This document shows positions 6,520-62,207 of a DNA stretch of 64,000 nucleotides, one piece after another. Positions within the stretch are counted from its first letter, which is position 1, and each line of letters begins with the position of its first letter. This stretch comes from Acidobacteriota bacterium (lineage in GTDB: Bacteria > Acidobacteriota > Polarisedimenticolia > SMYD01): NCBI GenBank assembly GCA_046757965.1, contig JBHHZI010000001.1:25112-89111 (forward strand), in the 5' to 3' direction. Position numbers and translations under genes: made by a program. The notes under the pieces are model-generated. The model saw only the letters and a list, made by a program, of their open reading frames with translations, did no database searches and had not been told where the DNA came from.

Positions 6520-6579
6520 GACACCGCGGGCGGTCACGCTGTCTCACGATTTCGTTGAAAACGGATCGGATCGAGGAGT

Positions 6580-8589
6580 ATGATGGGCGGTATCTCCTGC
6601 CTGTACTCCGGCGGGGCGGTCCGGACCGCCGCCGGCGTCCAGCAAAGGCCGGGCGTGACCGTGACCAGAGGTTTTCGCAAGAACATCGAGGATCTGCTCG
6701 AGGAATGGCGTCCGCCCGGCGGCATGGCCGCCTTGCTTCTCGAGCATCCAACCGCGGGAGTCTACTTCCCGCTGGCGGTCCAGCCAGCCGCCGAGAACAC
6801 CGACTATTACTCGATGCCGGTGCGATTTCGCGATGGCTGCGACACCAGCCTGCAGCTCGATGAGACTTCTTCGCCGGAACGGCTCGCGTTTCGCGGCCGG
6901 CTCGAGTTGACACGGCCCGATCTGCGATTGCCGGTGAGGCAGGAACTGGTGCCGCTTCACCAGGATGGGGACGGCGGGCTGAAGGTTCTCCTCCTGCGCT
7001 CGTCACCGGGGACGATGCCGGACATGGAGCCGCGAAACCTGAACACCCTGAAGAATCTGGTTCCCCTGACCTGTCTGAACTGGGTGGAACAGGCGCAGAG
7101 ATCGATCGAGATCCCGGAGTTCTCGAGCTTCGAGGAGCTCGCGCAGGACCTGGTCAAGCGGCTCAGCGACGTGGAGCAGGACCCCCCCTATTTCCCCATC
7201 CTGCATGCCGAGGTGACGCCGGACGCTGAGGCTCTCGGCGCCCGTTTCTCCAGCGCCAACCTGCTGAGCTGGAACTGTTACCTCCTCGACGATCAGCGGA
7301 GCATGCCGGCCTACATCCCGCAGATGCCCACCGTGATGGGGGAAAAGAAGATTCACGAGTGGTGGGAGGATGTCACACGGCGGGCCGACGCCTCGAGCAT
7401 GACCGAATCGATCCGGAAGGCCGCCGCCAAGACCATCGATCATGTCCGGCTGATCGGCCGATGCGACCATGATGGCGTGGCGTGGTGGGCGTTTGCCCGC
7501 CACAACAAGGATCGCCGGGAGATGACAGGGCTGCTGTGTGAATGGTCCGAGGGGGAATCGATCCTCTCGGCCGCCGAGGCCTGGAGGGACGTCGACCCGA
7601 TCACGCCCGGTGACCTCGTGCGCCGGGCGCTGGCCGTGCGATCGGATGAAGATGACGTCCTGGTGACGATGTGGCTGGTCAGCGACACGGGCCAGGGCAT
7701 CAATATCGGGTTCAAGGCGGGCAACCGCATCGAGGTTCTCGATCACGCCGAGATGGGCGGCGCGGATCAGGTGGAGATCACGGAGTTCGTTCCGTTCTGT
7801 GTGCGGCTGTCCCCGTTGCCGCTGGTCGACAGGCAGGTCATCGAGGACCGGGTCCGGCCGGTCCTTGCCAGCGCAGCGCGCGCGGCACGACGCATCGACG
7901 GGTCGGGCCTGATCGAGAGCGCCTTCGAGCCGGTTCGCAGGGAGCTGCACGAGGGCTCATGGCATGACGCCTACCCGGGCAGTGGCCTGTTCGTGGACCG
8001 ATTTCATGACGTGGCCGACTGGACCGACGAGGACGTGAAGCGATGCCATGAACGGATGGTCGTGCTTCTCGACGGATTGCTGACCGCCTGGACCGGCAAC
8101 GCGAACCCGCTGAGCCGCAACCGTTGCGAGACACGCTTCGACTGCTGGCACATTCGCGCCCTCAAGGCTCTGGCTCATGACCGTCTGCACTCCAGCCTGG
8201 TGATGGCGGTTCTCTCCGGACCGGTGTCGGACGCGTCGTACCTGCTGGCCGACCGGGAGATATGCCCCGGCGGCAACGTACGCTGGTCAGACCTCCTGGC
8301 GGCGCTGACGACGGTCACGACCGAGGGCAATCGCTTCCGGCTGAAGCAATGGCACCACGGCGCAAGATGCACGCTGATCCTGCGGTTCTCCGGCCAGCTC
8401 AACCCCCAGGGTGTCACCGCCGCACTGACCGGAGAGGGCGCGCAAGAACGACAGGGCAGCTTCACGCGTGCCTGTGAAACCCTGCGTCGCGCGGCGCGAC
8501 GGTTCGGCGTGGAGATCGATCACGACGGAGACGAAGACGAACGATGGAGCCTCGTCGTCGTTCTGGCCGAGAGCGAGCTTGCCTGCTAA
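6580..8589 (+). CDS. Large uncharacterized protein (669 aa) immediately downstream of the cysteine desulfurase
   Basis: Long ORF with high GC3. GAGGAG lies just upstream of ATGATG. No motif I can name. TAA stop. Confidence 0.6.
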   Translation: MMGGISCLYSGGAVRTAAGVQQRPGVTVTRGFRKNIEDLLEEWRPPGGMAALLLEHPTAGVYFPLAVQPAAENTDYYSMPVRFRDGCDTSLQLDETSSPERLAFRGRLELTRPDLRLPVRQELVPLHQDGDGGLKVLLLRSSPGTMPDMEPRNLNTLKNLVPLTCLNWVEQAQRSIEIPEFSSFEELAQDLVKRLSDVEQDPPYFPILHAEVTPDAEALGARFSSANLLSWNCYLLDDQRSMPAYIPQMPTVMGEKKIHEWWEDVTRRADASSMTESIRKAAAKTIDHVRLIGRCDHDGVAWWAFARHNKDRREMTGLLCEWSEGESILSAAEAWRDVDPITPGDLVRRALAVRSDEDDVLVTMWLVSDTGQGINIGFKAGNRIEVLDHAEMGGADQVEITEFVPFCVRLSPLPLVDRQVIEDRVRPVLASAARAARRIDGSGLIESAFEPVRRELHEGSWHDAYPGSGLFVDRFHDVADWTDEDVKRCHERMVVLLDGLLTAWTGNANPLSRNRCETRFDCWHIRALKALAHDRLHSSLVMAVLSGPVSDASYLLADREICPGGNVRWSDLLAALTTVTTEGNRFRLKQWHHGARCTLILRFSGQLNPQGVTAALTGEGAQERQGSFTRACETLRRAARRFGVEIDHDGDEDERWSLVVVLAESELAC

Positions 8590-8670
8590 GAGTCGAACGC
8601 ACGGGCCATGCCGCGGCTCCGGCCACGGCGGCGCGGTCGCCGGACCATGCGCTCGCGGGACCGCCACGGG

Positions 8671-9501
8671 ATGAGTGCCTCGAGCTGGTCGCTTTACCTG
8701 TTCGACCCCGAGGACCGGGCCTACCGCAGGCCCTGGGCGTCGATGCTGCCGGCTCCGTTTCACGAGGTCACCATCGTGGATTCTTTCTTCCAGAGGAGCG
8801 GGGGCAGGGCTCGCGACGGTGTCGTCGTCGTCCACGCCTCGCGCCTGCCTGACGAGAAGCGACGCGGCGATCTGGTCAGCAACGCCAGACAGATGAATCT
8901 TCACCTGGTTCTCATCTCTGGTGGGCATCAGTCAGAGCCGGCGCGTGACAACTGGGTCTATTTCCGCCGCCGCCCGGTTCGCATGCGCGACATCGACGAG
9001 GAGTTTGTCGACTGCTTCGCCCGCTTCTGGCACCATCTTCGGTCCACCGATGAGTTCCGCTTCGAGCTTCTCGAACCGGCGCGAGACATGGTCCGGGTGC
9101 TGGTCGTGCTCTGCCAGGGCTATCTTCTCGCCCACGTGCGGCGCGACCCGCTGCGCCTCGAACTGCCGGGGGAGTCTCACGCGGTGTGTGACCAGGGGCT
9201 CGCAGCGTTGAACCGTCTCGGGCTCGACACGGCCCTGGCGACCCCCCCGGCGCCGGATAGCGTCTCCGAGCTGCTCGAGGAGGAGATGGGAGAGCTCGTG
9301 GACTCCGCCGACTGGTGGTCACCGGTCGATGTGCCGCGGCTTCGCCACGAGCTGGCGACTCTCGACATGAACGATGTGAACGTCCGGCGTCTTGTCGCCG
9401 GAATCGACGCGGAACTCTCCGTTGCTCCGGCCGTGGTGGTCGCGGCGTACTGCGTGCTCGAACAACACCTGCGCGCGAGTCTCCGGCCGCAGAGGGCCTG
9501 A
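8671..9501 (+). CDS. Uncharacterized protein (about 276 aa) in the same apparent operon
   Basis: ORF in the same orientation 80 nt after the preceding gene. Start ambiguous between 8608, 8647 and 8671. No recognizable motif. Confidence 0.5.
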   Translation: MSASSWSLYLFDPEDRAYRRPWASMLPAPFHEVTIVDSFFQRSGGRARDGVVVVHASRLPDEKRRGDLVSNARQMNLHLVLISGGHQSEPARDNWVYFRRRPVRMRDIDEEFVDCFARFWHHLRSTDEFRFELLEPARDMVRVLVVLCQGYLLAHVRRDPLRLELPGESHAVCDQGLAALNRLGLDTALATPPAPDSVSELLEEEMGELVDSADWWSPVDVPRLRHELATLDMNDVNVRRLVAGIDAELSVAPAVVVAAYCVLEQHLRASLRPQRA

Positions 9502-13567: not shown

Positions 13568-15496
13568 ATGACCCTCACTCCGGATCTCATCATGGCGCTG
13601 GCAGCGCTGGCCATCGTGGCCCTGGCGGCCGACAAGGTCGGGGCCTTCTTCGGCCGGCTGCGACTCCCTCTGATCACCGGTTTTCTGTTCACCGGTGTCC
13701 TGGCCGGGCCACACGGTCTCGATCTGATCCGCAGCTCCGCGATCGGTCATCTCCATGTCGTCAGCGAGACGACCATCGCCTTCATCGCGTTCGCCGCCGG
13801 CTCGGAACTGGATCTCGGCGACCTCAAGCACCGGTTGAGAAGCATCCGCTGGGTGTCCACGGGGCTGGTCGTGGTCACCTTCAGCAGCACGGTTGTCGCG
13901 ACGCTGCTGGTAGCGGACGCTCTGCCGTTTGCCCGCGCGCTGCCGGCCACCGAGCGGTGGGCCGTGGCACTCCTCGCCGGCGCCGTTCTCGTGGCGCGTT
14001 CTCCGTCGTCCGCCATCGCGGTGGTGAACGAGCTGCGGGCGCGGGGCCCGTTCACCGGCATGGTGCTGGGCGTCACCGTCGTCATGGACGCGGTGGTCAT
14101 CGTCCTCTTCGCCGCCAGCTCGTCAATGGCCGACGCCTTGCTCGCCGGACAGGCGTTCGATCTCCAGGTCCCCCTGCTTGTGCTGGGCGAGATCGTGGTC
14201 TCTCTCGGGCTGGGGTTCCTGCTCGGCAAGGTCCTGCCGTCGCTGGTGGGCGGGTCGCGCCATCAGACGGTTCGTGCGGGTCTCCTTCTGGCCACGGGTC
14301 TTCTGAACTTTTCCGGGGCCGATCTGGTCCGGACCCTCAGTCGCGCTCGACTGTCGGTGGACATCCTCATCGAACCGTTGCTGGTCTGCATGGTGGCGGC
14401 GTTCGTGTCCACGAACTTCACATCGCACACCGGCAGGGTCCGGGAGGTCGTCGAGTCCGCCGGACCGACCGTGTAGGTGGTCTTCTTCACGCTGGCAGGG
14501 GCATCACTGGATATCGGCGTTCTGGCAGGAACCTGGCAGGTCGCCCTGATCCTGTTCGGCGTCCGGCTCGCATCCATCGTCGTGGGGTCGGCGGTGGGTG
14601 GCATGCTGGCCGGGGACCCCGCCCGCTTCAATCGCGTCGGCTGGATGAGCTTCGTCACCCAGGCGGGCATCGGGCTTGGACTGGCGGAGGAGATCGCTGG
14701 CGAGTTCCCGACCTGGGGCGGCTCCCTCTCGGCCGTCATCGTCGCCATCATCGTCATGAACCAGGTTGTCGGGCCTCCCCTGTTCAAGTGGGCCCTGCAC
14801 CTGGTCGGAGAGGCCCGCTCTGTCGACGACGTCGCCCGCGACCGCGACCTCTCCCGGGCGGTGATCGTGGGGTGGGACGCGCAGGCCATCGCCGTGGCCC
14901 GGCAGCTCACCGTCCACGGCTGGGAGGTCGCTGTCGCCTCTCGCAAGGTCAACGCGGAAGAGGCAGTGCCAGGTTCTCCGGCCACACTCACACCGCTGTC
15001 GGACCTGACCACCGAGGGTCTGCGCGCTGCCGGCGCGGACCGTGCAGACACCCTCGTGGGTCTGCTCACGGACGAGGAAAACACGCACCTCGTGGAGATG
15101 GCGCGGGCCTCGTTCCCGTCGGCTCACCTGGTCGTGCAGATCCATGATCGAGACCGGGCCGCGACCCTGGCAGGTGATGGTGTGGTGGTCATCGACCCGG
15201 AGACGGCCATCGTGAATCTACTGGACCACCTGGTGCGCACGCCGGCAGCGACCTCGCTCCTGCTCGGTGAGGACCCGGGGCAGGACGTCACGGATCTGCA
15301 GGTCGGCAACGTCGCGCTCCGGGGCGTGGCGGTGCGCGATCTTCATCTTCCGCTGGACATCCGGGTGCTCTCGATCCAGCGCCGCGGCGCCCGCCTCATT
15401 TCCCATGGACACACCCGGCTCGCCGTCGGAGATCAGGTCACCGTGGTCGGGAGTGCGGCGAGTCTGCGCGAGGTGGCGTTCCTGTTCGAGTCCTGA
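13568..15496 (+). CDS. Monovalent cation:proton antiporter (CPA2/Kef-type) with RCK_N and RCK_C (TrkA) domains; the single reading frame is interrupted by an in-frame TAG at 14474-14476
   Basis: The two ORF-track pieces 13568..14476 and 14477..15496 are in the same frame, separated only by TAG. The sequence is continuous across it, PTV-TAG-VVFFTLAGASLDIG, which matches the conserved Kef motif LLLGLFFIAVGMSIDFG. The C-terminal half has RCK domains. Confidence 0.75.
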
Positions 15497-18237: not shown

Positions 18238-18402
18238 TATGACACGGCCTCCCGGTGTCCGGACCCACCCCGGGGCCACACGTCCCCGGCGGCCAGCCAC
18301 CATCGCCGCCGCGCCATGAGTGCCCGGATGGACACGGGGGATGTAGAATGCTCGCGCCCGACGGGATGCAGTGACGCGACCCGGTCGAGGGGGGGCTTTC
18401 CG

Positions 18403-20583
18403 GTGACCCTGTCGAATGGACCCCGGCTCGGACCGTACGAGATCATCGCCCCGGCCGGAGCCGGCGGCATGGGAGAGGTGTACCGGGCGCGGGATACCCG
18501 GCTGGCGCGCGACGTGGCCATCAAGGTGCTGCCGGAACACCTTTCCGACCATCCCGACCTGCGTGCCCGCTTCGAGCGTGAGGCACGCGCCGTCTCCTCG
18601 CTGAACCATCCGCACATCTGTACGCTCCACGACATCGGCCACGAGGACGGCATCGACTACCTGGTGATGGAGTACCTCGAGGGACAGAGTCTGGCTGCCC
18701 GTCTCGAGACCGGGGGCCCACTGCAGGGCGATGAGCTGCTCGGCATCGCCACGCAGATCGCCGAGGCCCTGGACACCGCTCACCGTCAGGGACTCGTTCA
18801 CCGGGACCTGAAGCCGGGCAACATCATGCTCACCCCGTCGGGCGCCAAGGTGCTGGACTTCGGCCTGGCCAAGATGGCCGCGTCCGGCCCGACAGCCGGC
18901 GACAGGACGGCGATCCTGCCGTTGACCTCCGCACCGACGGTGGCCGGAAGAGAGGCCGCCGGGACACCGTCGCCGCTGACCGCCGCCGGGACGATTCTGG
19001 GCACGTTTCAGTACATGGCGCCGGAGCAGATCGAGGGGAAGGAAGCCGACGTCCGCAGCGATATCTTCGCGTACGGTGCCACCCTCTACGAGATGGCCAC
19101 GGGCCAGCGCCCCTTCCAGGGCGAGACCCAGGCCTCGCTCATCGCCTCGATCCTCAAGGATGATCCCCGATCCATCGCGTCATCCCGGTCGCGCGCTCCC
19201 GGCGGACTGGATCGCCTCGTCCGCAACTGCCTGGCCAAGAATCCGGCTGACCGGCGTCAGACCATGCGCGACGTGCTGCTCGATCTCCGCGCTCTCGCGG
19301 ATGCGGACGACGCCGGCCACACTCCGGACGCCGGGCATCCATCCAGCACTCGCGCCGCCGTTACCTCGCGGTCGGCCAGGGGGGCCTGGGCGGTCGCCAC
19401 CCTGGCCCTCGCCGTGGCCGCACTCACTGCCGTGGCCTGGTGGACCGGCCGGCCGGCGCCGCTCGCCCCGGCCGCGGTGATCCGCTCCTCCGTCGAGGCG
19501 CCTGACGGCATGACGTTCCAGTTCGAAGGCCCCAACGCCGGCGCGGTCACCGTGTCACCAGACGGACGTTTTCTGACCTTTTCCGCCACCAGCACCGATG
19601 GCATCCGGCGACTCTAGCTGCGCCGCCTGGACAAGATGGAGGCAACAGCCATTCCCGAGTCCGACAACGGCCAGTACCCGTTCTGGTCCCCAGATTCACG
19701 CTTCATCGCCTTCTTCGCGTCCGGCAAGCTGAAGAAGGTCTCGACCACCGGCGGCCAGGTGATCACGCTCTGTCGGGCGGCCAACGCACGCGGCGGAACG
19801 TGGGGATCCGCGGGCACCATCCTGTTCACGCCCCATTGGCGGCGCCAGCCGATCTTCCGGGTTCCCGCCGACGGCGGCGAGCCGGTGGCCGTGACGCAGC
19901 TCGACGCGACCCGCAACGAGACGACCCATCGCTGGCCGTGGTTTCTGCCGGACGGCCGCCATTTTCTGTTCCTGGCCGGCAGCCACATCGTCAAGTCGAC
20001 CAGCGGCGACAACGCCATCTATCTGGGTTCCCTGGACTCCGACGAGACCCGTCTGCTGTTTCGGGCTCGCTCCGCCGCGGTCTTCGCCGCCGGCCAGATC
20101 CTGTTCTCACGCGGCGGGTCGCTGGTGGCCCGGCCGTTCGAACCGGACCGTCTGGCGTTCACCGGCGACGAACGCACTCTCGTCACCGGCGTGCAGTACG
20201 AGCGTACCTACTTCCAGGGTGTGTTCGGGGTCTCCGCCGCCGGCCTCCTGGCGTACCATGCCGGCAACACACGGACGGTGAGTAATCTGGTCTGGATGGA
20301 CCGCGACGGCGGCATCACTCCCCGCTGGGCGAATGGCGGCAACGAGTTGTTTTTCATCGCGCCGGATCACACGCTCATGGAGGTGGGCGTCTCCTTCACA
20401 CCCGAGCTGACTCTGGAGGCACCTCGACCCCTGTTCGATTCGGAGGTGCGCATCGACGACACAGCGTGCTACGACGTGACCCCCGACGGCAAGCGTTTTC
20501 TCATCAACCGCCTGCCCGCGAATCAGGGTGCCGCCTCGATCACACTCATCAGCGGATGGACCTCGCTGCTACCCGTGGAATGA
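18403..20583 (+). CDS. Ser/Thr protein kinase with a TM segment and a C-terminal TolB-like (PD40/WD40 beta-propeller) domain; interrupted by an in-frame TAG at 19615-19617
   Basis: Kinase motifs are GPYEII..GAGGMGEVY, VAIK, HRDLKPGNIM, DFG and APE. ORF pieces 17911..19617 and 19636..20583 are in the same frame. The sequence is continuous as DGIRRL-TAG-LRRLDKMEATAIPESDNGQYPFWSPDSRFIAFFASGKLKK. This matches the conserved RLW/YLRPLD ... PFWSPDGR ... GKLKK motif of kinase-TolB fusions. Start proposed at GTG 18403 (GAGGGGG upstream). Confidence 0.8.
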
Positions 20584-33213: not shown

Positions 33214-33390
33214 CTGGGTCATCTGCCCCGTCACGGCGTGCGTCCCGATTTCCGGAACCTGAATCCCGAGAGGTTCGTGCGCGCCGTGTGATAAGGCGTC
33301 GGGGGCAACGGCGTCCTTCATATCAGAACCGCGCCGGCAGAGTGACCCGGGCAATGCGGCCCGCAGGCTGTGGGATATCTTGGGGGGATC

Positions 33391-36300
33391 ATGAAGAAGA
33401 GCCTGTACCTCTGTGTATTCCTCGCGAGCGGTGTCATCGCGACCGCCGCCGAGATTCCGTTCTATGATGCCCGGGCGATCGCCCGGGGACTCACCGATCC
33501 ATCGAAGATATTCCTTGCTGACCTGGATGGCGACGGCCGTGCTGACCTGCTCTCCGCCTCCTTCGGAGACGAGATCGTCGCCTGGTCGCGCAACCTGGGC
33601 AAGGACTCCGCCGGCCAGACGCTGTTCGGGTCCCGGCAGACCATCGCCGCGGCCCCGGCTGTCTTCAGTCCCACCGGCGTCCTTGCGATCGATGTCGATG
33701 GGGATGGCGACCTCGACGTGCTGTCGTCCTCGTTTGCCGACGCGAAGATCGCCTGGTACGAGAATCTCGGCACTGGAAACTTCGGCGACCCCGCCACCAA
33801 CCAGAAGGTCATCTCCACCGGCGCCATCGGCGCCTTCGCCGTCTCGGCCGCCGACATCGATGGCGACGGGGACGTTGACGTTCTCTCCGCCTCCCAGAGC
33901 GACTCGCGCATCGTCTGGTACGAGAACAGCGGCGCGCCGGCAGCACCGGGCGAGTGGACGTTTCACGACGTGTCCACCGCCGCCATGGCGGCACGCCAGG
34001 TGATCGCGGCGGACCTCGATGCCGACGGCGATCTGGATCTGCTGTCGGCGTCGGTGTTCGGCAACCCCATCGCCTGGTACGAGAACCTCGGTGGTGGCGT
34101 CTTCGGCGACGCCGCCACCAATCAGAGGGTGATCTCGTCGACCGTGCTGAGCGGGCGCGCGGCTGTCGCCGGCGACGTGGACGGTGACGGGGATCTCGAT
34201 CCGATCTCCGCCTCGTGCGTCGACAACACCGTGGCCTGGTACGAGAACAGCGGCTCCACCACCACCGGCATCTGGAACCAGCGCGTCGTCTCGAGCACCG
34301 CCGCCTGTCCCGAGTCGGTCTTTGCGGCTGATCTGGATCAAGACGGCGATATCGACATCCTCTCGGCCTCGTCGGGTGGCACGCTGAACTGGTTCGAGAA
34401 TGTCAATGGCCTCGGCATGTTCGCCACCGCCCGGCCCCTGGCAAGCGCCTTCGGCGGCATCGATGCCCGCGCCGGCGACATGGACGGCGACGGCGACCTC
34501 GATGTGGTGGGTGCGACGGCTCTCACCGGTGAGATCGCCTGGTTCGAGAACCGCACCATCCACGGCAACAGCACCTTCGCGCCCGCGTCCATCATCGATT
34601 CCGCCGTCGACGTCACGGCGGTGGTGGCGGCCGACCTCGACCGGGACGGCAGTCCCGACGCGGTGGCCGGCAGCGGGGCCGATGGATCCCTGGCCTGGTG
34701 GCACAACGACGAGCAGGGCCTCTTCTCGCAGATCGCCCGGGACATCTCGCTCAACTCGCCCGGCACGGAGGCGATCGTGGCAGCCGACCTGGACGGCGAC
34801 GGCGATCTCGATGTGGCGTCGGCTACGACGAGCAGCGGCTCCCGCCTCGCCTGGCACCGGAACCTGGGCGCCGGTGACTTCGGTGCGGATTCGATCATCG
34901 ATGCCTCCGGCGTCAATTACAGGACCATCGACTCAGGCGACATCGATGGCGACGGGGATCTCGATCTGCTGGCCGGCGGCAACTTCAACGAAGGCTCCAC
35001 ACCCGGCGTGCTGACCTGGCTCGAGAATACCGACGGGAACGGCACGTTCTCCGCCCGGCCGAACATTCCCACGGGAATCGTCGAGAGCATCGCCTCCGTT
35101 CATCTGGCAGACCTGGACGGTGACGGCGACCTGGACATCATCACCGGAGGAGTCACGTCGGCGCTTGGCAGCGTCGACTGGTTCGCCAACGACGGCGCCG
35201 GGAACTTCTCACCCGCCGCGGGCATCGACACCACGAGCGATCCGATCGCATCGGTCACGACCACCGATGTGGACGGCGACGGCGACCGGGACGTCGTGGC
35301 CGGCCGGTCCTTTGCCGTGTCATGGTACGAGAACGTGGATGGTCACGCAGGAGCGTTCGGACCGGCCCGGAGCATCACGGCCAGTGTCAAGTCGGTCCGC
35401 TCCGTGTTCGCCGCCGATGTGGATCGGGACGGCGATGCCGATGTTCTCGCCGCGTCGTCCGATGACAACCTCCTCTCCTGGTACGAGAACCTCAACGGCG
35501 CCGGAAACTTCGGCCCACAGCAGACCGTCGATGCCGACTCCGTCGGCGCCCGCTCCATCGTCACGGCAGACATCGACAGCGACGGGGACCTCGACGTGCT
35601 GTCCGCTTCTCCCCTGGGATTGGCGCTGGCCTGGTCGGAGAATCGTGGCGGCCAGTACAGTTTCTCGGGTTCCGACCTGGCCCCGGCGCGCGCACCGTCG
35701 GGGCAGGTGATCCCGCTGCTGTCCCTGACGGCGACGTTGCATGCCCGTCCGGGAGACTCCCCGGGTGAGGTCACCTCACTCGCCCTGCTCTTCGAGCAGG
35801 CGCCGGGTGTCCCGCTGACCACCGAGGAGGCCAACGGTCTCATCGATGCCCTGCGGGTTTACCGCGACACCGGCTCGGGCATGTTCGAGGCGGGCGACGA
35901 CCTCGTCGTGACCACGGTCCAGACACTCGCCCTCGGCGGCGGGGTCCAGACCGTCCTGTTCGGCGATGGAGATGCTCTCGCCCGGCTGGCGGCCCCCGCA
36001 ACCTTCTTCGTGGTCGCCGAGCTGTCGCACGCCTCCTTTGACCTGATTCCCGACCACTTCCGCGTGACCCATCTGGCACCCAGCAGTGTCGTCGAGGACT
36101 TCCGCACCGACCTGCCCCTGGCACCGGCCACACTCGCCAGCATCACCTCGACCATCACCACCGCCTTCCAGCCGCTGGTGGTGACCACCACCGCCGACAG
36201 GGTCGACGACGCCGACGGCGTGTCCAGCCTGCGCGAGGCGGTTCAGGACGCCAACAGCCGTCCCGGGCCCGACCTCATTCTTCTCGGGCCGGGGACGTAC

Positions 36301-39300
36301 ACGCTGAGCATCGCCGGCGCCGGGGAGAATGCGGCGGCGAGTGGAGATCTCGACGTGACGGATTCCTCCGGCACACTCACCATCCAGGGCGCCGGCGCCC
36401 CCTCGCCCATCATCGAGGCCAGCGGCATCGACCGGGTGTTCGAGATCATCGGCGCCAGCCTGACGCTGGAAGGCGTCACCATCACAGGCGGCATGCCGCC
36501 GGAAGGCACCAGTCGGGGCGGCGGCATCGGCCATTTCTGTTGCTCGACCGGCACCACCACGCTCATCAACAGCGTGGTCACCGGCAACACGGCCTCCTTC
36601 TCGGGCGGTGTTGACAACAACAGCCCGAACGGTTCCATCATCGTGCTGAACAGCACGCTGACAGGGAACAGCTCCGGCTTCGGCAGTGCCATGGCGCTGG
36701 CCTTCGGCGCCGTCACCGTGTCCGGCAGCACCATCTCCGGCAACACCGGTTCCGCGGCGGTCGTCATCTCTCAGGATACGATCGGCACCATCGACAGCAG
36801 CACCATCACCGGCAACGATACCGGCCTGTCGAGTTCCTCGTCCACGCCGCTGCGCCTGTCCAACACGGTGGTGGCGGGCAACACCACGGATCTGACGGGT
36901 TCGTTCAACCTCGCCGGCCACAACCTCATCGGCAACCTCGGCGCAGCGGTACTCTCTTCCACCACGGTCACCGACCAGATCGGCGGCGAGGATGGGGGCC
37001 CCGCCATCGACGCTCTCCTCGGGCCGCTGCAGCTCAACAACGGCCCCACGCCGAATCATGCCCTGCTCGCCGGCAGTCCCGCGATCGATGCGGGGAACTG
37101 TTCCGGTCAGACCACCGACCAGCGAGGGGCTCCTCGCCCGGTGGACCTCTCCTCCGTGCCGAACGTGACCGGAGGCGACGGCTGTGATATCGGCGCCATC
37201 GAGGACACCGTCGCGCAGACCCTGACCGTCGTCAACGTTCCGGTCCGCTGGTGCGGGGTCGTCGGTGCGCCGTCGCTGCCGACAACCGCCGCCGCAGCCA
37301 ATGCCGAGCTTCTCTCCCGCAGCGAGGCGGCGACGTCGAACGTCCTGGCTCCCGTTGCCTCGATCCGGGTGCGCTCGGGAGCCACGGCGACCTTCCCCAG
37401 TTTTCCGCTGCTGACCGACCCGGACACCACCATCGGCAATCCCGGCGATGTTGTCGTCGACCCGGCGGCACGCAATTACGACGAAGTCCTGCAGCTCTTC
37501 ACCAGTTGCCGGACAGCCTGGGAGCAGGGAGACCCCTCGGTGGTCGGGATCACGGCCGTCCAGATCAACCAGTTCGTCGACCCGGCCAGGAACGCACTGG
37601 GGCTGCTCGGAGTCGGCGGTCGAGCCGAGCCCCTCAACGCCCCCCAGCAGGCCGTCGCCGGCCGTGTGATGATAGTGGACCCGCAACACCTGGTCGGACT
37701 CACACCCGCCGATTCCATCGAGCGGATCCTGGCCCACGAGTTCGGTCACGCCCTGTCCCTTCCCCACGGCAACGGGATGGACGATGACCTCAATGGCGTT
37801 CTTGACGACAACGACGACCGGTTCCTCGGCCTGCCGCGATTCGACGGGCCGAACCTGATGCACTACCGGACGGGATCCCAGCTCACCGATCTCCAGATCG
37901 GTCAGGCACGCCTGCACGCTGTCTCGACGATCCCCGACACGACGCTGTCGTCGAGCCTCGCGGTGGATGCCGACGACGTGCCGATCGATGAGGGCTTCAT
38001 CGACATCCTCGACTTTGGCTTCATCGATATTCTCGATTTCGGCTTCATCGACATCCTCGACTTCGGCTTCATCGACATCCTCGACTTCGCCATGAACGAG
38101 ACTCTCGATTTCGGCTTCGTCGATATCCTCGACTTTGGCATGTCCATCGGGACGGAAGCCCCGGACGAGACGACCCTGTTCACCTCCACCGGGGGCCTCC
38201 TGTGGCCACAGCCGATCCGGGTGGACTCGTCGTACTACTTCTACCTGGACCTCGACATGAATCCGGCCACGGGCGGCACGCCGTCCGATTTCGGCTTTCC
38301 TGGAGCCGGCGTGGCCGCCCAGACCGGCGTCGATCTCATCGCTCAGGTCGATGTGACGGCAACCGGCCAGACCCTGACCGTCCACCAGTTTGTCGATTCG
38401 ACCACCGGCTTCGTCGTCGTGCCGAACCCGGTGGCGGAACCGACCCGGGTGGAGAACGTGAGCGTCGGCCTGTTCCAGAGAACCGGCGGCGCGGCCGCCG
38501 AGACCGACGACCAGGCCATCGGCATCAACGTGCGGGCCCAGATCAAGAACAGTGTCCTGGAAGGAGCCGGCTGGACGGTCGGCGATCCGCTGACGCTCGA
38601 GACCCTCTCGACCGTGACCTGTTCAGGCATCCTGCCGGCCGGTTTCACCATTGATTGCCAGTGCATGGACTGTGCTGTCTGTCCGGATTTTCCGGGCTGT
38701 GCGGCCACCGGGACGCCCGACACCATCGATCCGGTCGTCGTCACCGACTGCGTCAACGCGGACCTCGACTTCACCCCCCCGCTGCTCCCGGCCTGCTTGG
38801 CCACCCCCGGGGAGATCGTCCCCGGAGGCAGCACCGTGGTCACCGCGAGCCATTTCCCGGCCGGCGCGGGCAACGTCGAGGTCCTGATCGGCTCCACCGT
38901 GCTGGGCAGTTCGCCGGTCGATGGGAGCGGGGATGCCGTCATCCCGGTCACCATTCCCTCCGGCACCACCGGTGGCCCGCTCGTCCTGACGACACGCATC
39001 CCCGGCCTCGCCACGGAGGCCACATGCGGCGTGCAGGTCAGTTCTCAGACGTCGGTCTGCGCGCCGGACCTCCAGGCGCCGTCGGTCAGTGTGACTGACA
39101 GCCTCATCGTGGCCGAGCAGACCACCTGTGGCGGCACGCCGGTCGACGTGCTCACCGCCAGCGGCTTCAGTGCGGATGATCTGTGCGATGGCTCACCGGC
39201 TGTCGCACTCTCGGATGCCGGACCCTATCCACTCGGCGACACCGTGGTCACCATCACCGCAACGGATGCGACCGGCAACAGCGCCGCCATCGACGTCACG

Positions 39301-39954
39301 GTGCGCATCGAGGACACGACGCCACCCGCGCTGTCGGTGCCGGCACCGCTGGTCGTCACCTCCACACAGCTCACGGTCGATGGCATCGGATGCGCGAAGA
39401 TCGACAATCCGGCCATCTCCGCCTGGCTGGCCGGGGCCAGTGCCACCGACGTCTGTGCCACCGGCACGGCCATCGCGCACGATGCACCGGACACCTTCCC
39501 GGTGAACACGACCACGGTGACGTTCACGGCCACCGACCCGTCGGGCAACATGACACAGGCCACGTCGGACGTGCAGGTGGTGTACGAGTTCAGCGGGTTC
39601 GGCAAACCGCTGATGTCGGACGGCTCGGCCTCGGTCAAGCAGGGCAAGAAGGGTCGCACGATACCCGTGAAGTTCGCCCTGAGCTGCGGCGGCACACCCG
39701 TCGCCACCGCTGTGGCGAGCATCGGAGTGTTCCAGATATCGAACGCGGACACCGGCACCGTCGACACCACGGATCTGACGGAGGACTCGGGCACTGCCAA
39801 TGATGGCGGGAATCTCTTCCGTTTCGACCCGAACAATCAGCAGTACATCTTCAACCTCTCCACCACGGGGTTCGCGGCACCGGCCACCTACCGGATCGTG
39901 GTGGGTCTTGACGATGGAACGGAGAAGACGGTGGAGTTCTCGCTGCGGCCCTGA
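33391..39954 (+). CDS. Giant secreted multi-domain protein. It combines FG-GAP/VCBS-type repeats, a parallel beta-helix, a zinc-metalloprotease-like HExxHxxxxxH motif, a GFIDILDF tandem repeat, and C-terminal Ig-like (HYR-like) domains.
   Basis: Signal peptide MKKSLYLCVFLASGVIATAA. More than 12 repeats of DxDGDGDLDxL ... IAWYEN (FG-GAP-like Ca-binding beta-propeller blades). NxxGxxS beta-helix rungs. ILAHEFGHALSLPHG. Conserved Cys-rich segments in the C-terminal third. Confidence 0.85.
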   Translation: MKKSLYLCVFLASGVIATAAEIPFYDARAIARGLTDPSKIFLADLDGDGRADLLSASFGDEIVAWSRNLGKDSAGQTLFGSRQTIAAAPAVFSPTGVLAIDVDGDGDLDVLSSSFADAKIAWYENLGTGNFGDPATNQKVISTGAIGAFAVSAADIDGDGDVDVLSASQSDSRIVWYENSGAPAAPGEWTFHDVSTAAMAARQVIAADLDADGDLDLLSASVFGNPIAWYENLGGGVFGDAATNQRVISSTVLSGRAAVAGDVDGDGDLDPISASCVDNTVAWYENSGSTTTGIWNQRVVSSTAACPESVFAADLDQDGDIDILSASSGGTLNWFENVNGLGMFATARPLASAFGGIDARAGDMDGDGDLDVVGATALTGEIAWFENRTIHGNSTFAPASIIDSAVDVTAVVAADLDRDGSPDAVAGSGADGSLAWWHNDEQGLFSQIARDISLNSPGTEAIVAADLDGDGDLDVASATTSSGSRLAWHRNLGAGDFGADSIIDASGVNYRTIDSGDIDGDGDLDLLAGGNFNEGSTPGVLTWLENTDGNGTFSARPNIPTGIVESIASVHLADLDGDGDLDIITGGVTSALGSVDWFANDGAGNFSPAAGIDTTSDPIASVTTTDVDGDGDRDVVAGRSFAVSWYENVDGHAGAFGPARSITASVKSVRSVFAADVDRDGDADVLAASSDDNLLSWYENLNGAGNFGPQQTVDADSVGARSIVTADIDSDGDLDVLSASPLGLALAWSENRGGQYSFSGSDLAPARAPSGQVIPLLSLTATLHARPGDSPGEVTSLALLFEQAPGVPLTTEEANGLIDALRVYRDTGSGMFEAGDDLVVTTVQTLALGGGVQTVLFGDGDALARLAAPATFFVVAELSHASFDLIPDHFRVTHLAPSSVVEDFRTDLPLAPATLASITSTITTAFQPLVVTTTADRVDDADGVSSLREAVQDANSRPGPDLILLGPGTYTLSIAGAGENAAASGDLDVTDSSGTLTIQGAGAPSPIIEASGIDRVFEIIGASLTLEGVTITGGMPPEGTSRGGGIGHFCCSTGTTTLINSVVTGNTASFSGGVDNNSPNGSIIVLNSTLTGNSSGFGSAMALAFGAVTVSGSTISGNTGSAAVVISQDTIGTIDSSTITGNDTGLSSSSSTPLRLSNTVVAGNTTDLTGSFNLAGHNLIGNLGAAVLSSTTVTDQIGGEDGGPAIDALLGPLQLNNGPTPNHALLAGSPAIDAGNCSGQTTDQRGAPRPVDLSSVPNVTGGDGCDIGAIEDTVAQTLTVVNVPVRWCGVVGAPSLPTTAAAANAELLSRSEAATSNVLAPVASIRVRSGATATFPSFPLLTDPDTTIGNPGDVVVDPAARNYDEVLQLFTSCRTAWEQGDPSVVGITAVQINQFVDPARNALGLLGVGGRAEPLNAPQQAVAGRVMIVDPQHLVGLTPADSIERILAHEFGHALSLPHGNGMDDDLNGVLDDNDDRFLGLPRFDGPNLMHYRTGSQLTDLQIGQARLHAVSTIPDTTLSSSLAVDADDVPIDEGFIDILDFGFIDILDFGFIDILDFGFIDILDFAMNETLDFGFVDILDFGMSIGTEAPDETTLFTSTGGLLWPQPIRVDSSYYFYLDLDMNPATGGTPSDFGFPGAGVAAQTGVDLIAQVDVTATGQTLTVHQFVDSTTGFVVVPNPVAEPTRVENVSVGLFQRTGGAAAETDDQAIGINVRAQIKNSVLEGAGWTVGDPLTLETLSTVTCSGILPAGFTIDCQCMDCAVCPDFPGCAATGTPDTIDPVVVTDCVNADLDFTPPLLPACLATPGEIVPGGSTVVTASHFPAGAGNVEVLIGSTVLGSSPVDGSGDAVIPVTIPSGTTGGPLVLTTRIPGLATEATCGVQVSSQTSVCAPDLQAPSVSVTDSLIVAEQTTCGGTPVDVLTASGFSADDLCDGSPAVALSDAGPYPLGDTVVTITATDATGNSAAIDVTVRIEDTTPPALSVPAPLVVTSTQLTVDGIGCAKIDNPAISAWLAGASATDVCATGTAIAHDAPDTFPVNTTTVTFTATDPSGNMTQATSDVQVVYEFSGFGKPLMSDGSASVKQGKKGRTIPVKFALSCGGTPVATAVASIGVFQISNADTGTVDTTDLTEDSGTANDGGNLFRFDPNNQQYIFNLSTTGFAAPATYRIVVGLDDGTEKTVEFSLRP
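37993..38136 (+). repeat. Near-perfect 24-nt tandem repeat (6 units) encoding GFIDILDF x4 plus two variant units
   Basis: The unit ggcttcatcgacatcctcgacttt is repeated head-to-tail with only synonymous third-position changes. It lies inside the giant gene just downstream of the HExxH motif. Confidence 0.8.
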
Positions 39955-40049
39955 CGGAGTATGATGACGGTCCCGGTGGGAAGCGGGAAAGCGTTGATCG
40001 GCACCGCGCCTTTCGAGACGGACGATGGTCTTTTGCGTGGGGGGCACGC

Positions 40050-42662
40050 GTGACGCAAGACGACACCCGGAACACGCCGCGGCCATCCACACCCGCCGGT
40101 TCCAGTCATGATGACGCGGCGTCGTCCGGTGACCCGACGAGGGGACCCGGTCGCGGCGACGGTCAAGATCCCATCCGGTCGGCCGGGGACAAGGCGATGG
40201 GGATTCCCGCTCCCGGCGGTCCGGACGCTGCTGAGCCAGACCCCTCCAGCCAGCGCCGCGAACTCGAGGACCAGGAGACCGTCCTGCGCACGCAGCGCTC
40301 CGTGTCGGCGGGAAACACGCCGGCAGGCGTGGCGGGCCCGGAGGACGAGGAGACCTTGCTGGCCATTTCGCCGCCGGCCGGCCAGGCCCCGAGGTCAACG
40401 GGCGACCTCGAGGCCGGCCATGTGATCGGCCGCTACCACCTGCTCCAGAAGATCGGCGAGGGGGGAATGGGCGATGTCTGGGAGGCCGACCAACACGAAC
40501 CGGTCCGCCGCCGGGTCGCCTTGAAGCTCATCAAGCAGGGCATGGATACCCGGCAGGTCGTGGCGCGCTTCGAGAGCGAACGGCAGGCCCTGGCCGTGAT
40601 GGACCATCCCTTCATCGCCCAGGTGTTCGATGCCGGCAGCACCGACAGGGGCCGCCCGTACTTCGTGATGGAGTACGTGAAGGGAGTGCCGATCTCCGAG
40701 TACTGCGACCGCCGACGACTGGACACACGCGCCCGCCTGGCCCTGTTCATGCAGGTCTGCGAGGGTGTCCAGCACGCGCATCACAAGGCGATCATTCACC
40801 GGGATCTGAAGCCGTCGAACATCCTGATCGCCCTGCACGGTGACAAGGCGACCCCGAAGATCATCGACTTCGGCGTGGCCAAGGCCACATCCAGGCCGCT
40901 GACCGACAGCACCATGTTCACGGAGCTGGGCCAGTTCATCGGCACTCCCGAGTACATGAGCCCGGAGCAGGCGGAGATGGGCGGTCAGGACATCGATACC
41001 CGCACCGATGTCTACGCCCTCGGGGCCATCCTCTATGAACTCCTGGTCGGGGCACTGCCGTTCGACGCCGGGCCACTGCGTCGCGCCGGGCTGGACGAGA
41101 TCCGGCGTCACATCATCGACGTGGACCCGCCGACTCCCAGTGCCCGTTTTCCCACCCTCGGAGGCGAGGCCGCCGCCACGTCCGCCCGCAACCGATCCAC
41201 CGACGTCTCGACACTGAGACGCCAGCTCCGCGGCGATCTGGACTGGATCGTCATGAAGGCGATGGAGAAGGACCGGTCGCGTCGTTATGGGTCGCCCATG
41301 GAACTGGCGGCCGACATCGGGCGCTATCTGGCCTCGGAGCCGATCGCCGCCCGCCCACCAAGCACCACCTACCGGATGCAGAAATTCGTGCGCCGCCACA
41401 CCGGCGCCGTCGCGGCTGCCGGCACCCTGGCGAGTCTCCTGGTGGCGTTCGCCGTCGTCATGGCCGTCCAGGCGGGTCGGATCGCGGCAGAGCGGGACCG
41501 CGCCAACCAGGAGGCGGCAGCCGCCACCCGGGTCTCGAGTTTTCTCACCGGCCTGTTCAGGGTCTCCGACCCCGGCGAGGCGCGTGGCAACAGCATCACA
41601 GCTCGCGAGATCCTCGACCAGGGAGCAGACAGCATTCACAAGACGCTCGCCGACCAGCCGGCCATCCAGGCTCGCCTCATGGACACCATGGGTGAGGTGT
41701 ACCGCAACCTGGGACTGTACGCTCCCGCCACGCCACTGCTGAGTGACGCGCTTCAGACACGGCGTCATCTTCTGGGCGATGACCACCCGGACGTTCTGCG
41801 CTCGATGCAGCAGCTCGGCATCCTCTACTACCAGCAGGGACGCTTTGACGAGGCAGAGCCACTCCTGGCCGACGCCCTGGCCAAGCGACGCCGGGTTCTT
41901 GGCCCGGAGGATCCCGACACGCTGGACTCCATGAACAGCCTGGCCAATCTGTACCTCCGGTCACGCCGCACGGAGGAGGCCGAGCCGCTCTATGTGACGG
42001 CCCTGGCCGCCCAGCGGCGCATTCTGGATGATGACGATCCGGCAACACTCAAGACGATGAACAACCTCGCCGCGCTGTACAAGCGGACCAGGCAGTTTGA
42101 ACTTGCCGAACCGCTGGCTCGTGACGCCCTTGCGTCCCGACGGCGCGTACTGGGCGACGATCACCCCAGCACGCTCAACGCCCTGCAGAACCTCGCCGTC
42201 ATCAATACATTCGAGGGCGATTTCGACCAGGCGGAACCACTGTTCGAGGAAGCGCTGGCCACACGCCGGCGGGTGCTGGGTGAGGAACATCCCGAGACCC
42301 TGCTGCAGATGAACAATCTGGCCGAGTTCTACCGGATGGCGGGCAAGGCCGAACGGGCCGAGCCGCTGCTGGTCTCGGCACTGGCAACCCAGCGGCGGGT
42401 TCTGGGCAACGATCACCCCAGCACGTTCGCCATGCTGGACACCCTCGCCCATGTCTACATGGACGAGAAACGCTTCGACGCCGCCGAACCGCTGTTCCAG
42501 GAGGCCCTGGAGGGACGGGCCCGCGTCCTGGGGCCCGCCGACCGAAGTACCATCGAATCTCTCAACGCCATGATCGCCCTGTGCGATGCGAAGGGCCACG
42601 AGAAGATGGCCGGGCATTACCGGGAGCGTCTGGCCCGAGCCATGGCAGACCGCGAGAGATGA
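40050..42662 (+). CDS. Ser/Thr protein kinase with a TM segment and C-terminal tetratricopeptide (TPR) repeats
   Basis: Kinase motifs are GEGGMGDVW, VALK, HRDLKPSNIL, DFG and PEYMSPE. One TM helix. Then more than 8 repeats of the LxxLxxLYxxQGRxxEAEPL type. GTG start is provisional. Confidence 0.85.
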   Translation: MTQDDTRNTPRPSTPAGSSHDDAASSGDPTRGPGRGDGQDPIRSAGDKAMGIPAPGGPDAAEPDPSSQRRELEDQETVLRTQRSVSAGNTPAGVAGPEDEETLLAISPPAGQAPRSTGDLEAGHVIGRYHLLQKIGEGGMGDVWEADQHEPVRRRVALKLIKQGMDTRQVVARFESERQALAVMDHPFIAQVFDAGSTDRGRPYFVMEYVKGVPISEYCDRRRLDTRARLALFMQVCEGVQHAHHKAIIHRDLKPSNILIALHGDKATPKIIDFGVAKATSRPLTDSTMFTELGQFIGTPEYMSPEQAEMGGQDIDTRTDVYALGAILYELLVGALPFDAGPLRRAGLDEIRRHIIDVDPPTPSARFPTLGGEAAATSARNRSTDVSTLRRQLRGDLDWIVMKAMEKDRSRRYGSPMELAADIGRYLASEPIAARPPSTTYRMQKFVRRHTGAVAAAGTLASLLVAFAVVMAVQAGRIAAERDRANQEAAAATRVSSFLTGLFRVSDPGEARGNSITAREILDQGADSIHKTLADQPAIQARLMDTMGEVYRNLGLYAPATPLLSDALQTRRHLLGDDHPDVLRSMQQLGILYYQQGRFDEAEPLLADALAKRRRVLGPEDPDTLDSMNSLANLYLRSRRTEEAEPLYVTALAAQRRILDDDDPATLKTMNNLAALYKRTRQFELAEPLARDALASRRRVLGDDHPSTLNALQNLAVINTFEGDFDQAEPLFEEALATRRRVLGEEHPETLLQMNNLAEFYRMAGKAERAEPLLVSALATQRRVLGNDHPSTFAMLDTLAHVYMDEKRFDAAEPLFQEALEGRARVLGPADRSTIESLNAMIALCDAKGHEKMAGHYRERLARAMADRER

Positions 42663-57806: not shown

Positions 57807-58199
57807 TCAGGATACCAGTTGGGACGATGTTGCCGCATTGTTCCACGCGATCTCCATCCCCGCGCGGTGAACAGAGCGACCGAAGAGGCCGCGAATCAGT
57901 CGTTCCGAGCGAATCGGTCGCAGATCCGGGCGTGGCGCCCAGAATCGAGAGATGATCGGCTTGATGGTCGTTGGCCCGTCATCGCCGCCACCATTGCCGG
58001 GAACCACGCAGTTGCCACTGAGATTGCAACGACCGAAAAGCTTCGAACTGTGACACGAACTGGCGCCACTACCCTCCGTGGCGGAGCAAACGCGACTTGC
58101 CGAACAGGTCACGCAAGCGCGGGGTGCCGCAGGGATACCGGCGGCGAGCATCACAACCGCTGAGAGACCGAGAACAAACGTGAGACGTTTCGAGTTCAT
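57807..58199 (-). CDS. Small secreted cysteine-rich protein (130 aa; signal peptide, then 6 Cys within about 35 aa)
   Basis: GGAAGGAG SD before ATG. Signal peptide MNSKRLTFVLGLSAVVMLAAGIPAAP. CVTCSASRVCS ... CHSSKLFGRCNLSGNC. Confidence 0.5.
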   Translation of the reverse strand: MNSKRLTFVLGLSAVVMLAAGIPAAPRACVTCSASRVCSATEGSGASSCHSSKLFGRCNLSGNCVVPGNGGGDDGPTTIKPIISRFWAPRPDLRPIRSERLIRGLFGRSVHRAGMEIAWNNAATSSQLVS

Positions 58200-58866
58200 G
58201 AAGCTCCTTCCCTTTCCGCACAGCCCGATGTCGAGATGAGACGCCAGGCGTGGGCGGTGAATGGCGCGGAGACGGCGCTGGTCACGCTCTTTCTCCGCGT
58301 ACGGTTGATGAAATATCGCCGGTGGTAGGCGACGGTTTCCTTGGAACGCAGCATGCCGATGAGACAACTCCGGACAGGCGTGGTCAGCCAACCATCCAGG
58401 AGCCAGGGCCACAGGTGGCGATACGACGCTGGCGGAGACGTTCATCATTTCACCGGTTTCTTCCCCACGACAGGTTCGACCCGGAACCTTGCCGGCAGAG
58501 ATTGGTGGTCACGGCGGAGCAAGAGGCAAATTGTGTGCCAGCTCTCCGCTTTCCCCCGGATCCATGCAGACCACCATCGAACAGCGTACCGGAGCGCAGG
58601 GAAACGGCGACGGCGGCCAAGAAAGTCGGATCCATGCACCGATTCAACCAGCCTGGAGGTCGTCTCATTCGCAGATAGAGACGGGCCGCTGCGCGCGCTC
58701 TAGGACGACTGTTCCATCTCGCACAGTGGCTGTTCTGTGTTGTCCTGCAGTGGGACATCCGGCTCTCGAGACCACGGTCCGGCGTTCATGTCCACCCGTG
58801 CCGCCCGACCTCGCCCCGCGGCATGCCGTGATACACTGCCCAAACAACGAACGAGGAGACCTGCCT

Positions 58867-59103
58867 GTGACCGAGCCGACCGTTGCCGAGAAGTACCCTG
58901 CTGTCCTGGAGCTCGAACCCGGCACTTACCACTGGTGCCGCTGCGGGCGCTCCGCCGGCCAGCCGTACTGCGACGGGTCGCATGCCGGCACGGCGTTCAC
59001 ACCGCTCACCTTCACGATCGAGGAGAAGAAGACCGTGGCCCTGTGCCAGTGCAAGGTCACCGGCAATGCTCCGTTCTGCGACGGCGCTCACAAGCGTCTC
59101 TGA
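58867..59103 (+). CDS. CDGSH iron-sulfur domain protein (two CDGSH-type motifs)
   Basis: CRCGRSAGQPYCDGSH and CQCKVTGNAPFCDGAH. GAGGAG upstream of the GTG start. The 79-aa size is typical. Confidence 0.8.
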   Translation: MTEPTVAEKYPAVLELEPGTYHWCRCGRSAGQPYCDGSHAGTAFTPLTFTIEEKKTVALCQCKVTGNAPFCDGAHKRL

Positions 59104-59400
59104 CAGATCACCGGTCTTCGCCGGCGCCGGCCACCTCTTCGAGGGAAGGGAACGGCCGGCGACAACGTCCGTCCGTCAGGTGAGCACGCCGGCCGGGAGC
59201 CTCTCCTCGATGGGTGAGCCGACGCGATGGCGGCATCTGGCCCGATCGACCGACCGTCGCCGGCAGGCCCGCCGGTGGCGCGGCACGGGCAAGACCGGCA
59301 GCCGGATCCTTCCCGGCGGGAGATGGTAGTCTGTGGGTGACTCTCGCGGACGTGAGGCGCCCCATCTGAACCGCGGGGTCGCACCACGGGAGGGCTTGTC

Positions 59401-61440: not shown

Positions 61441-61760
61441 TGGTTCACGGCGCAAGTTGACGACGCCGGCCGGATGGGCCTCACTGAATTCCCGGAACGC
61501 CAGGTCCTGCTTTCCGACCGTGCCGACGAGGCCCTCGCCCTCCACGCGCTCCATGACGAGAACAGGCATGCCGGCGTCTTCCTCGACCAAGTGCACGGTG
61601 ACGATGTTCGGATGATTGACGGCGGCGGTCACCCACACGGACAACATCCATTGATTCAGTCACTTGAAGAGCATCAATAGCAAGATTCTGGCGTCTTGAC
61701 TTTCGCCTCGCCCGGGTCGACTTTTTCTTGACGGGGCGGTTCTGCCCCCTGGGGGTAGCC

Positions 61761-62168
61761 ATGCGAAGAGATCCGACCAAAGTGATGCCCGGCTCCCAGG
61801 AGAGCAGGGGATTCCAGCAGTTCCTGACCGGCCACGACGTGAAGCTCGTCCAGGTGTCCGGGGACGCGGCCGGCACGCAGTTCGAGCTCCGCCAGGAGGT
61901 TCAGACGCTCGGTCGCGGAGCGGATGCCGACCTCGTCATCGATACAGAGGCCGCGTCTCGAAAGCACGCCGCCATCGAATTCGCCGGCGGACAGTTCCGC
62001 GTGCGCGATCTCGGCAGCACCAACGGCTTCCTGCTCAACGGCAAGTCGGTGCAGACAGCGAACCTGCAACACGGCGATCAGATCGAGATCGGCGGGCAGG
62101 TTTTCCAGTTCATCTGCGACACCCGGGATGTCGATCCCGAGACCTATCAGATCGACGCGGACGACTGA
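61761..62168 (+). CDS. FHA domain protein
   Basis: LGRGADADLVID ... SRKHAAIEF ... VRDLGSTNGFLLNGKSV, the canonical FHA core. Confidence 0.8.
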   Translation: MRRDPTKVMPGSQESRGFQQFLTGHDVKLVQVSGDAAGTQFELRQEVQTLGRGADADLVIDTEAASRKHAAIEFAGGQFRVRDLGSTNGFLLNGKSVQTANLQHGDQIEIGGQVFQFICDTRDVDPETYQIDADD

Positions 62169-62207
62169 TCCGACAGGTTCCCCCACGAACCGGAACGGCA
62201 AACCAAC

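Follow-up and report, generated by a model that had tools for sequence, protein, structure and literature searches.

We identified an in-frame amber codon (TAG) within a gene for a predicted cation:proton antiporter, at a position where nearly all related proteins have tyrosine. The gene lies in a 64-kb stretch of DNA (hereafter the window), which is part of a 90,757-bp contig from a metagenome-assembled genome (MAG) of an uncultured Acidobacteriota bacterium. Its domain matches place it in the cation:proton antiporter superfamily, with an RCK module at the C terminus. We favor, with moderate confidence, the reading that the TAG is a recent, ordinary nonsense mutation that inactivates this antiporter. 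In GenBank the two halves are listed as two normal proteins, with no pseudogene flag, and the second is called from a GTG at 14477.

Translated in a single frame on the forward strand, positions 13568-15496 give 642 sense codons and one internal stop, and the local peptide reads ESAGPTV-stop-VVFFTLAGASLD. The TAG occupies 14474-14476, within the interval 14471-14482 given by the original prediction. The upstream ORF (13568-14476, 302 aa) and the downstream ORF (14477-15496, 339 aa) are in the same frame, and GC3 is 0.83 on both sides of the stop. With the stop masked, the joined translation yields one Na_H_Exchanger match (PF00999, 77 bits against a cut-off of 26.2) over residues 26-379, which corresponds to profile positions 9-343 of 375. 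Both domains of the regulatory module exceed their Pfam cut-offs (TrkA_N, 31.3 bits; TrkA_C, 37.1 bits). Hydropathy peaks are present on either side of the TAG (residue 303), and one peak spans it. The TrkA_N region aligns with a solved TrkA-type RCK protein (3l4b); sequence matches to solved structures are confined to the RCK part, with none for the membrane domain. It had been predicted that the two halves share one frame and one homology, with the break in the membrane core and the RCK domains downstream. The joined Pfam match and the collinear single-chain homologs bear this out, as the continuity is far beyond chance; the Pfam domains confirm where the break falls, and neither half looks self-sufficient. 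With TAG at residue 303, the gene has no uninterrupted frame for a single polypeptide. Coordinates are given in Table 1.

Table 1. Features of the interrupted antiporter gene and of a second gene with an in-frame TAG (window positions).
Feature	Position	Strand	Basis
Codons 1-302 of the antiporter gene, encoding the N-terminal portion of the Na+/H+-exchanger membrane domain	13568..14473	+	ORF, Pfam, GenBank CDS MFQ5717935.1
Amber codon TAG at near-invariant Tyr position (ancestral TAC or TAT)	14474..14476	+	Sequence, homolog alignment
Remaining 339 codons and TGA stop: last exchanger-core hydrophobic segments, then RCK module	14477..15496	+	ORF, Pfam, hydropathy; GenBank CDS MFQ5717936.1
Na_H_Exchanger (PF00999) match across the TAG, halves joined	13643..14704	+	Pfam
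TrkA_N (RCK Rossmann-type) domain	14861..15184	+	Pfam, downstream-half residues 129-236
TrkA_C domain	15317..15478	+	Pfam, downstream-half residues 281-334
Second in-frame TAG, at near-invariant Trp (ancestral TGG), in Ser/Thr kinase and TolB-like propeller gene	19615..19617	+	Homolog alignment
Approximate in-frame deletion junction in kinase/TolB-like gene	20305..20316 (near 20311)	+	Homolog comparison

The gene had been labeled CPA2/Kef. The general part of this label stands, given an Na_H_Exchanger domain with RCK, but the label is too specific, as the protein scores below the cut-off of every KefB/KefC-type NCBIfam model. Among the NCBIfam Kef or K+/H+ antiporter equivalogs, the top hit scored 38 bits where the cut-off is 355, and involved the TrkA_C region only. 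Like the CPA2 K+/H+ antiporters with KTN/RCK domains (KefC/KefB and YbaL types), the protein has a PF00999 domain fused to a cytoplasmic TrkA_N-type nucleotide-binding domain. The break falls within a conserved FF-x-x-x-G-x-S helix that was earlier compared with the Kef motif. Unlike KefC/KefB and YbaL, the antiporter has an additional TrkA_C domain and falls in a separate family of ~643-aa proteins, and it lacks a Kef equivalog match. No flavodoxin-like gene of the type that encodes a KefF/KefG partner was evident adjoining the antiporter gene among the Pfam-annotated neighbors. Orthology to KefB or KefC is not demonstrable from the sequence.

The joined antiporter sequence has 1559 homologs, and the best 120 of these are all single proteins that cover 95-100% of it. 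About two thirds of the 120 are about 643 aa in length; the others are larger proteins of up to 869 aa, with an additional domain at the C terminus (PF00359 or PF00571). The best homolog, with 59% identity, is from an Acidobacteriota MAG, and the ~643-aa family also occurs in Planctomycetota, Chloroflexota and other groups. The ortholog alignment proposed with the original prediction gives a clear result for the TAG column: among the best 120 of the 1559 homologs, Tyr occupies it in 118, His in one and Phe in one. The column lies within a block that is highly conserved in the family, with the consensus GPP(V/I)Y(I/V)xFFTLxGASL, compared with GPTV-TAG-VVFFTLAGASLD in the query. At the nucleotide level, the codons in 26 aligned related loci are TAC (17), TAT (5), TTT or TTC (3) and GTA (1), and in none of the 26 is TAG conserved or otherwise present at the site. 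The nearest relative (L001, 59% identity) has TAC. When genome and metagenome contigs were scanned with the joined protein, no hit exceeded 59% identity. Within public protein sets, the halves are present only as their own CDSs (MFQ5717935.1 and MFQ5717936.1), and an exhaustive search with the N-terminal half returned its own fragment and otherwise relatives of at most 50% identity, mostly full length and some fragmentary.

As the relatives carry TAC or TAT and never TAG, the stop is one base from the ancestral codon and private to this genome, as in a nonsense pseudogene. A single C-to-G change at the third base of the Tyr codon (TAC to TAG) would account for it. Translation would then end after residue 302, and the resulting membrane fragment would lack both the final hydrophobic segments of the exchanger core and all of the regulatory module, leaving the transporter inactive. 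The event would be recent, given that the downstream 339 codons remain open with normal codon bias. The position of the TAG, the ancestral codon, the restriction to this genome and the lack of recoding or re-initiation signals are observed; from these we infer that the organism itself carries the change and that its truncated product does not function.

Comparison of the two halves is consistent with a young event. Identity to the best hit is 0.59 before the TAG and 0.58 after it. Where at least 95% of homologs agree on a residue, the query keeps 0.947 of such columns upstream of the TAG and 0.894 downstream, and the minimum downstream retention among 14 equally isolated intact homologs is 0.921. 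The lower downstream value is a weak hint that constraint on this part of the sequence may have relaxed. That both in-frame stops found in the window (see below) are TAG is unremarkable, because with the codon usage of the window a random nonsense change yields TAG about 60% of the time, and the probability that both do so is ~0.36. Counting against a plain nonsense mutation are the nearly undecayed state of the downstream half, the lack of TAG terminators in 34 intact genes of the window, and a probability of only ~0.04-0.07 that both in-frame TAGs would hit aromatic residues under random nonsense mutation.

A nonsense-disrupted gene is an ordinary and already known kind of feature. Bacterial pseudogenes formed by nonsense substitution, which annotations show either with an internal stop or as a pair of neighboring partial CDSs, likewise have a stop that is one base off a conserved codon and private to one genome. 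Their fragments are also collinear with single-chain homologs, and they too have no re-initiation or recoding signals. A neighboring gene is likewise damaged here, and also has a deletion. The difference from the usual case is that the downstream part is almost undecayed, which points to a very young event, a variant or an error.

The damaged neighbor was found when the whole window was scanned with TAG treated as sense, which returned one other real gene with an in-frame TAG. This gene spans about 18316-20583 and encodes a Ser/Thr kinase with a TolB-like propeller. The TAG column is occupied by Trp in 114 of 120 homologs and by Tyr in one. Also missing is a median of 190 propeller residues that are present in all 120. 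In GenBank the TolB portion has a protein entry of its own (MFQ5717941.1). The gene looks to be decaying, because a TAG at a conserved Trp is combined with a loss of about 190 residues, and it is probably a pseudogene.

This is one of three genes for eukaryotic-like Ser/Thr kinases in the 64 kb, the others being located at 39912-42662 and 61668-63692. One of the three is fused to the TolB-like propeller and one to TPR repeats, and one is preceded by an FHA-domain gene. Such a density of Ser/Thr kinase genes is probably typical of Acidobacteriota. A 2203-codon ORF at 33346-39954, with at least 13 FG-GAP/VCBS-type repeats and an HYR domain, encodes a giant repeat protein that is secreted or located at the cell surface. 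A region of about 1.4 kb (57900-59350) has a weak coding signal and lower GC; its sole match is to a CDGSH iron-sulfur zinc-finger, in the C-terminal part of ORF 58363-59103.

The sequence derives from a MAG, and the TAG could be a consensus, assembly or sequencing error, or a minority allele, in which case the gene of the organism reads TAC and is intact. We consider this unlikely, although it is the alternative to which we give the most weight. The essentially undecayed state of the downstream half would be expected if the gene were intact, and two single-base, stop-creating differences occur within 5 kb. However, about 34 other genes in the window are full-length and free of frameshifts, whereas error-prone assemblies of homologous loci show serial frameshifts. 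This favors a real variant over noisy sequence. Furthermore, the 190-residue deletion in the kinase gene cannot be a base-calling error. A systematic, motif-linked miscall of GTAC as GTAG was considered and rejected, as GTAC is common (107 copies in the window) and the two TAG sites have no common context.

Disrupted antiporter homologs were encountered in other assemblies. In two unrelated long-read-style assemblies (L025, 3135-5017; L026, 807-2694), the homolog shifts frame around residues 290-308, not far from where the TAG lies here. The G/C homopolymer that encodes the G-P-P motif could be a hotspot for indel errors. In a Thermoanaerobaculia MAG (GCA_041394745.1; L027, 3281-5170), the homolog is disrupted by frame changes near residue 28 and near residues 118-198, and the only CDS called for it is a 399-aa C-terminal piece. 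This disruption may reflect repeated loss of the antiporter across the phylum, or assembly errors.

The GTG from which GenBank starts the second half directly follows the TAG, and an adjacent stop and start is a geometry that permits termination-reinitiation (translational coupling) in bacteria. Ribosomes might thus stop at the TAG and re-initiate at GTG 14477, with the two polypeptides assembling into a working antiporter that lacks only the Tyr; an undecayed downstream half would fit such a split but functional gene. We regard this as improbable. The GTG is the inherited Val/Ile codon of the family (the column after the TAG has Ile in 64 of the 120 homologs and Val in 46) rather than a purpose-built start, and the residue that would be lost is near-invariant. 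No Shine-Dalgarno-like motif was identified within 20 nt upstream of the GTG, nor was a promoter-like site identified inside the antiporter gene ahead of the downstream half. Four candidate natural standalone C-terminal halves (P0271, P0255, P0249 and P0260) were rejected, as tblastn indicates that they are pieces of full-length genes broken by frameshifts; several are from visibly error-rich assemblies. No natural split at this point was found among the C-terminal halves examined or in the search with the N-terminal half. The original prediction had considered that the downstream half might have its own promoter and ribosome-binding site, or standalone RCK homologs; among the sites and halves checked there are none.

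The original prediction implied that the TAG is decoded, on the grounds that the gene would be functional only in that case. Decoding could involve a suppressor tRNA, loss or weakening of RF1 with near-cognate read-through, or codon reassignment, and would give a full-length antiporter. The terminators in the window are unusual in this regard. Of the 34 intact genes, 33 end in TGA, one in TAA (8587-8589) and none in TAG, and the probability of no TAG terminator is ~0.015 given the window's own stop-trinucleotide frequencies (11.6% TAG; a 64-kb sample). In comparably GC-rich loci of other genomes, TAG makes up roughly 14-50% of terminators (2 of 14 in the nearest relative). However, TAG is depleted as a trinucleotide in general (3.5 per kb, compared with 25.5 per kb for TGA, counting both strands; CTAG occurs 7 times), and both this frequency and its share of the stop trinucleotides are the lowest among the compared loci. 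Its absence as a terminator is thus partly compositional, although the probability of ~0.015 already allows for this, and may also involve a lineage-specific terminator bias. The single TAA-terminated gene (6559-8589, 676 aa) is followed by an adjacent ORF (8590-9501, 303 aa); both are well formed (GC3 0.82) and neither has a Pfam match.

Also in line with decoding, both in-frame TAGs fall on conserved aromatic residues, and native near-cognate tRNAs in RF1-deficient E. coli are reported to insert Tyr, Trp and Gln at UAG (PMC4333366). The inserted Tyr and Trp match both ancestral residues here. This match is expected in any case, since a single base separates TAG from TAC and likewise from TGG. 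Moreover, the E. coli background was engineered, whereas nothing here indicates that RF1 is missing.

Several observations count against decoding. One TAG stands in place of Tyr and the other in place of Trp, and no single amino-acid assignment fits both: Trp is found in none of 120 homologs at the antiporter column, and Tyr in only one of 120 at the kinase column. Just two in-frame TAGs occur in about 17,500 codons, and the second gene that carries one also has a large deletion. We identified no tRNA gene in the 64-kb window, and so no suppressor tRNA was seen, and a scan of the window for Rfam families returned none. Predicted RNA structure following the antiporter and kinase TAGs is not significant (z = -0.85 and -1.15, respectively), and alignment of the two sites revealed no common sequence context. 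Pyrrolysine was considered and rejected: it is Tyr and Trp that are replaced, neither gene has a link to methylamine metabolism, and the Pfam annotations of the window include no pyl-like genes. Every bacterial stop reassignment known so far concerns UGA, and pseudogenes with in-frame stops are documented to give rise to false reassignment calls (PMC8629427).

Known recoding systems (UGA in codes 4 and 25, UAG as pyrrolysine, and UAG-recoded phages) likewise have in-frame stops in conserved genes and a codon that is scarce as a terminator, as TAG is in the 64 kb sampled here. They differ from the present case, in which there is no consistent amino acid at the TAGs, only two instances occur, and no relative keeps the TAG. 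Also lacking in the window are tRNA-CUA and pyl genes, and the affected genes are not methylamine methyltransferases. Unlike UAG-recoded phages, the region resembles an ordinary bacterial chromosome, with nothing phage-like.

Overall, we consider decoding of the TAG to be very unlikely. The implication that it is decoded gains no positive support, given that the change from Tyr to TAG is a single base and private to this genome and that the second TAG is on Trp. The earlier argument is better turned around: the antiporter gene is probably not functional. The lack of TAG terminators, together with the aromatic TAG sites, leaves a small chance that the lineage avoids and reads through TAG. In its most specific form, a deep-branching lineage would have lost or down-graded RF1, purged TAG terminators, and now read TAGs derived from TAC and TGG via suppressor or near-cognate tRNA-Tyr and tRNA-Trp, an early stage of amber-codon capture. 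We think this highly improbable, and we know of no bacterial chromosome in which amber-codon capture is documented.

Our preferred reading, a recent nonsense mutation, matters mainly for annotation. MFQ5717935.1 and MFQ5717936.1 are best treated as fragments of one disrupted antiporter gene and merit a flag as a probable pseudogene. If the genome did lack both RF1 and TAG terminators, this would be the first bacterial chromosomal reassignment of UAG. More generally, an in-frame stop at a conserved site, or even two such stops in one window, does not constitute evidence for recoding when each is one base off the ancestral codon.
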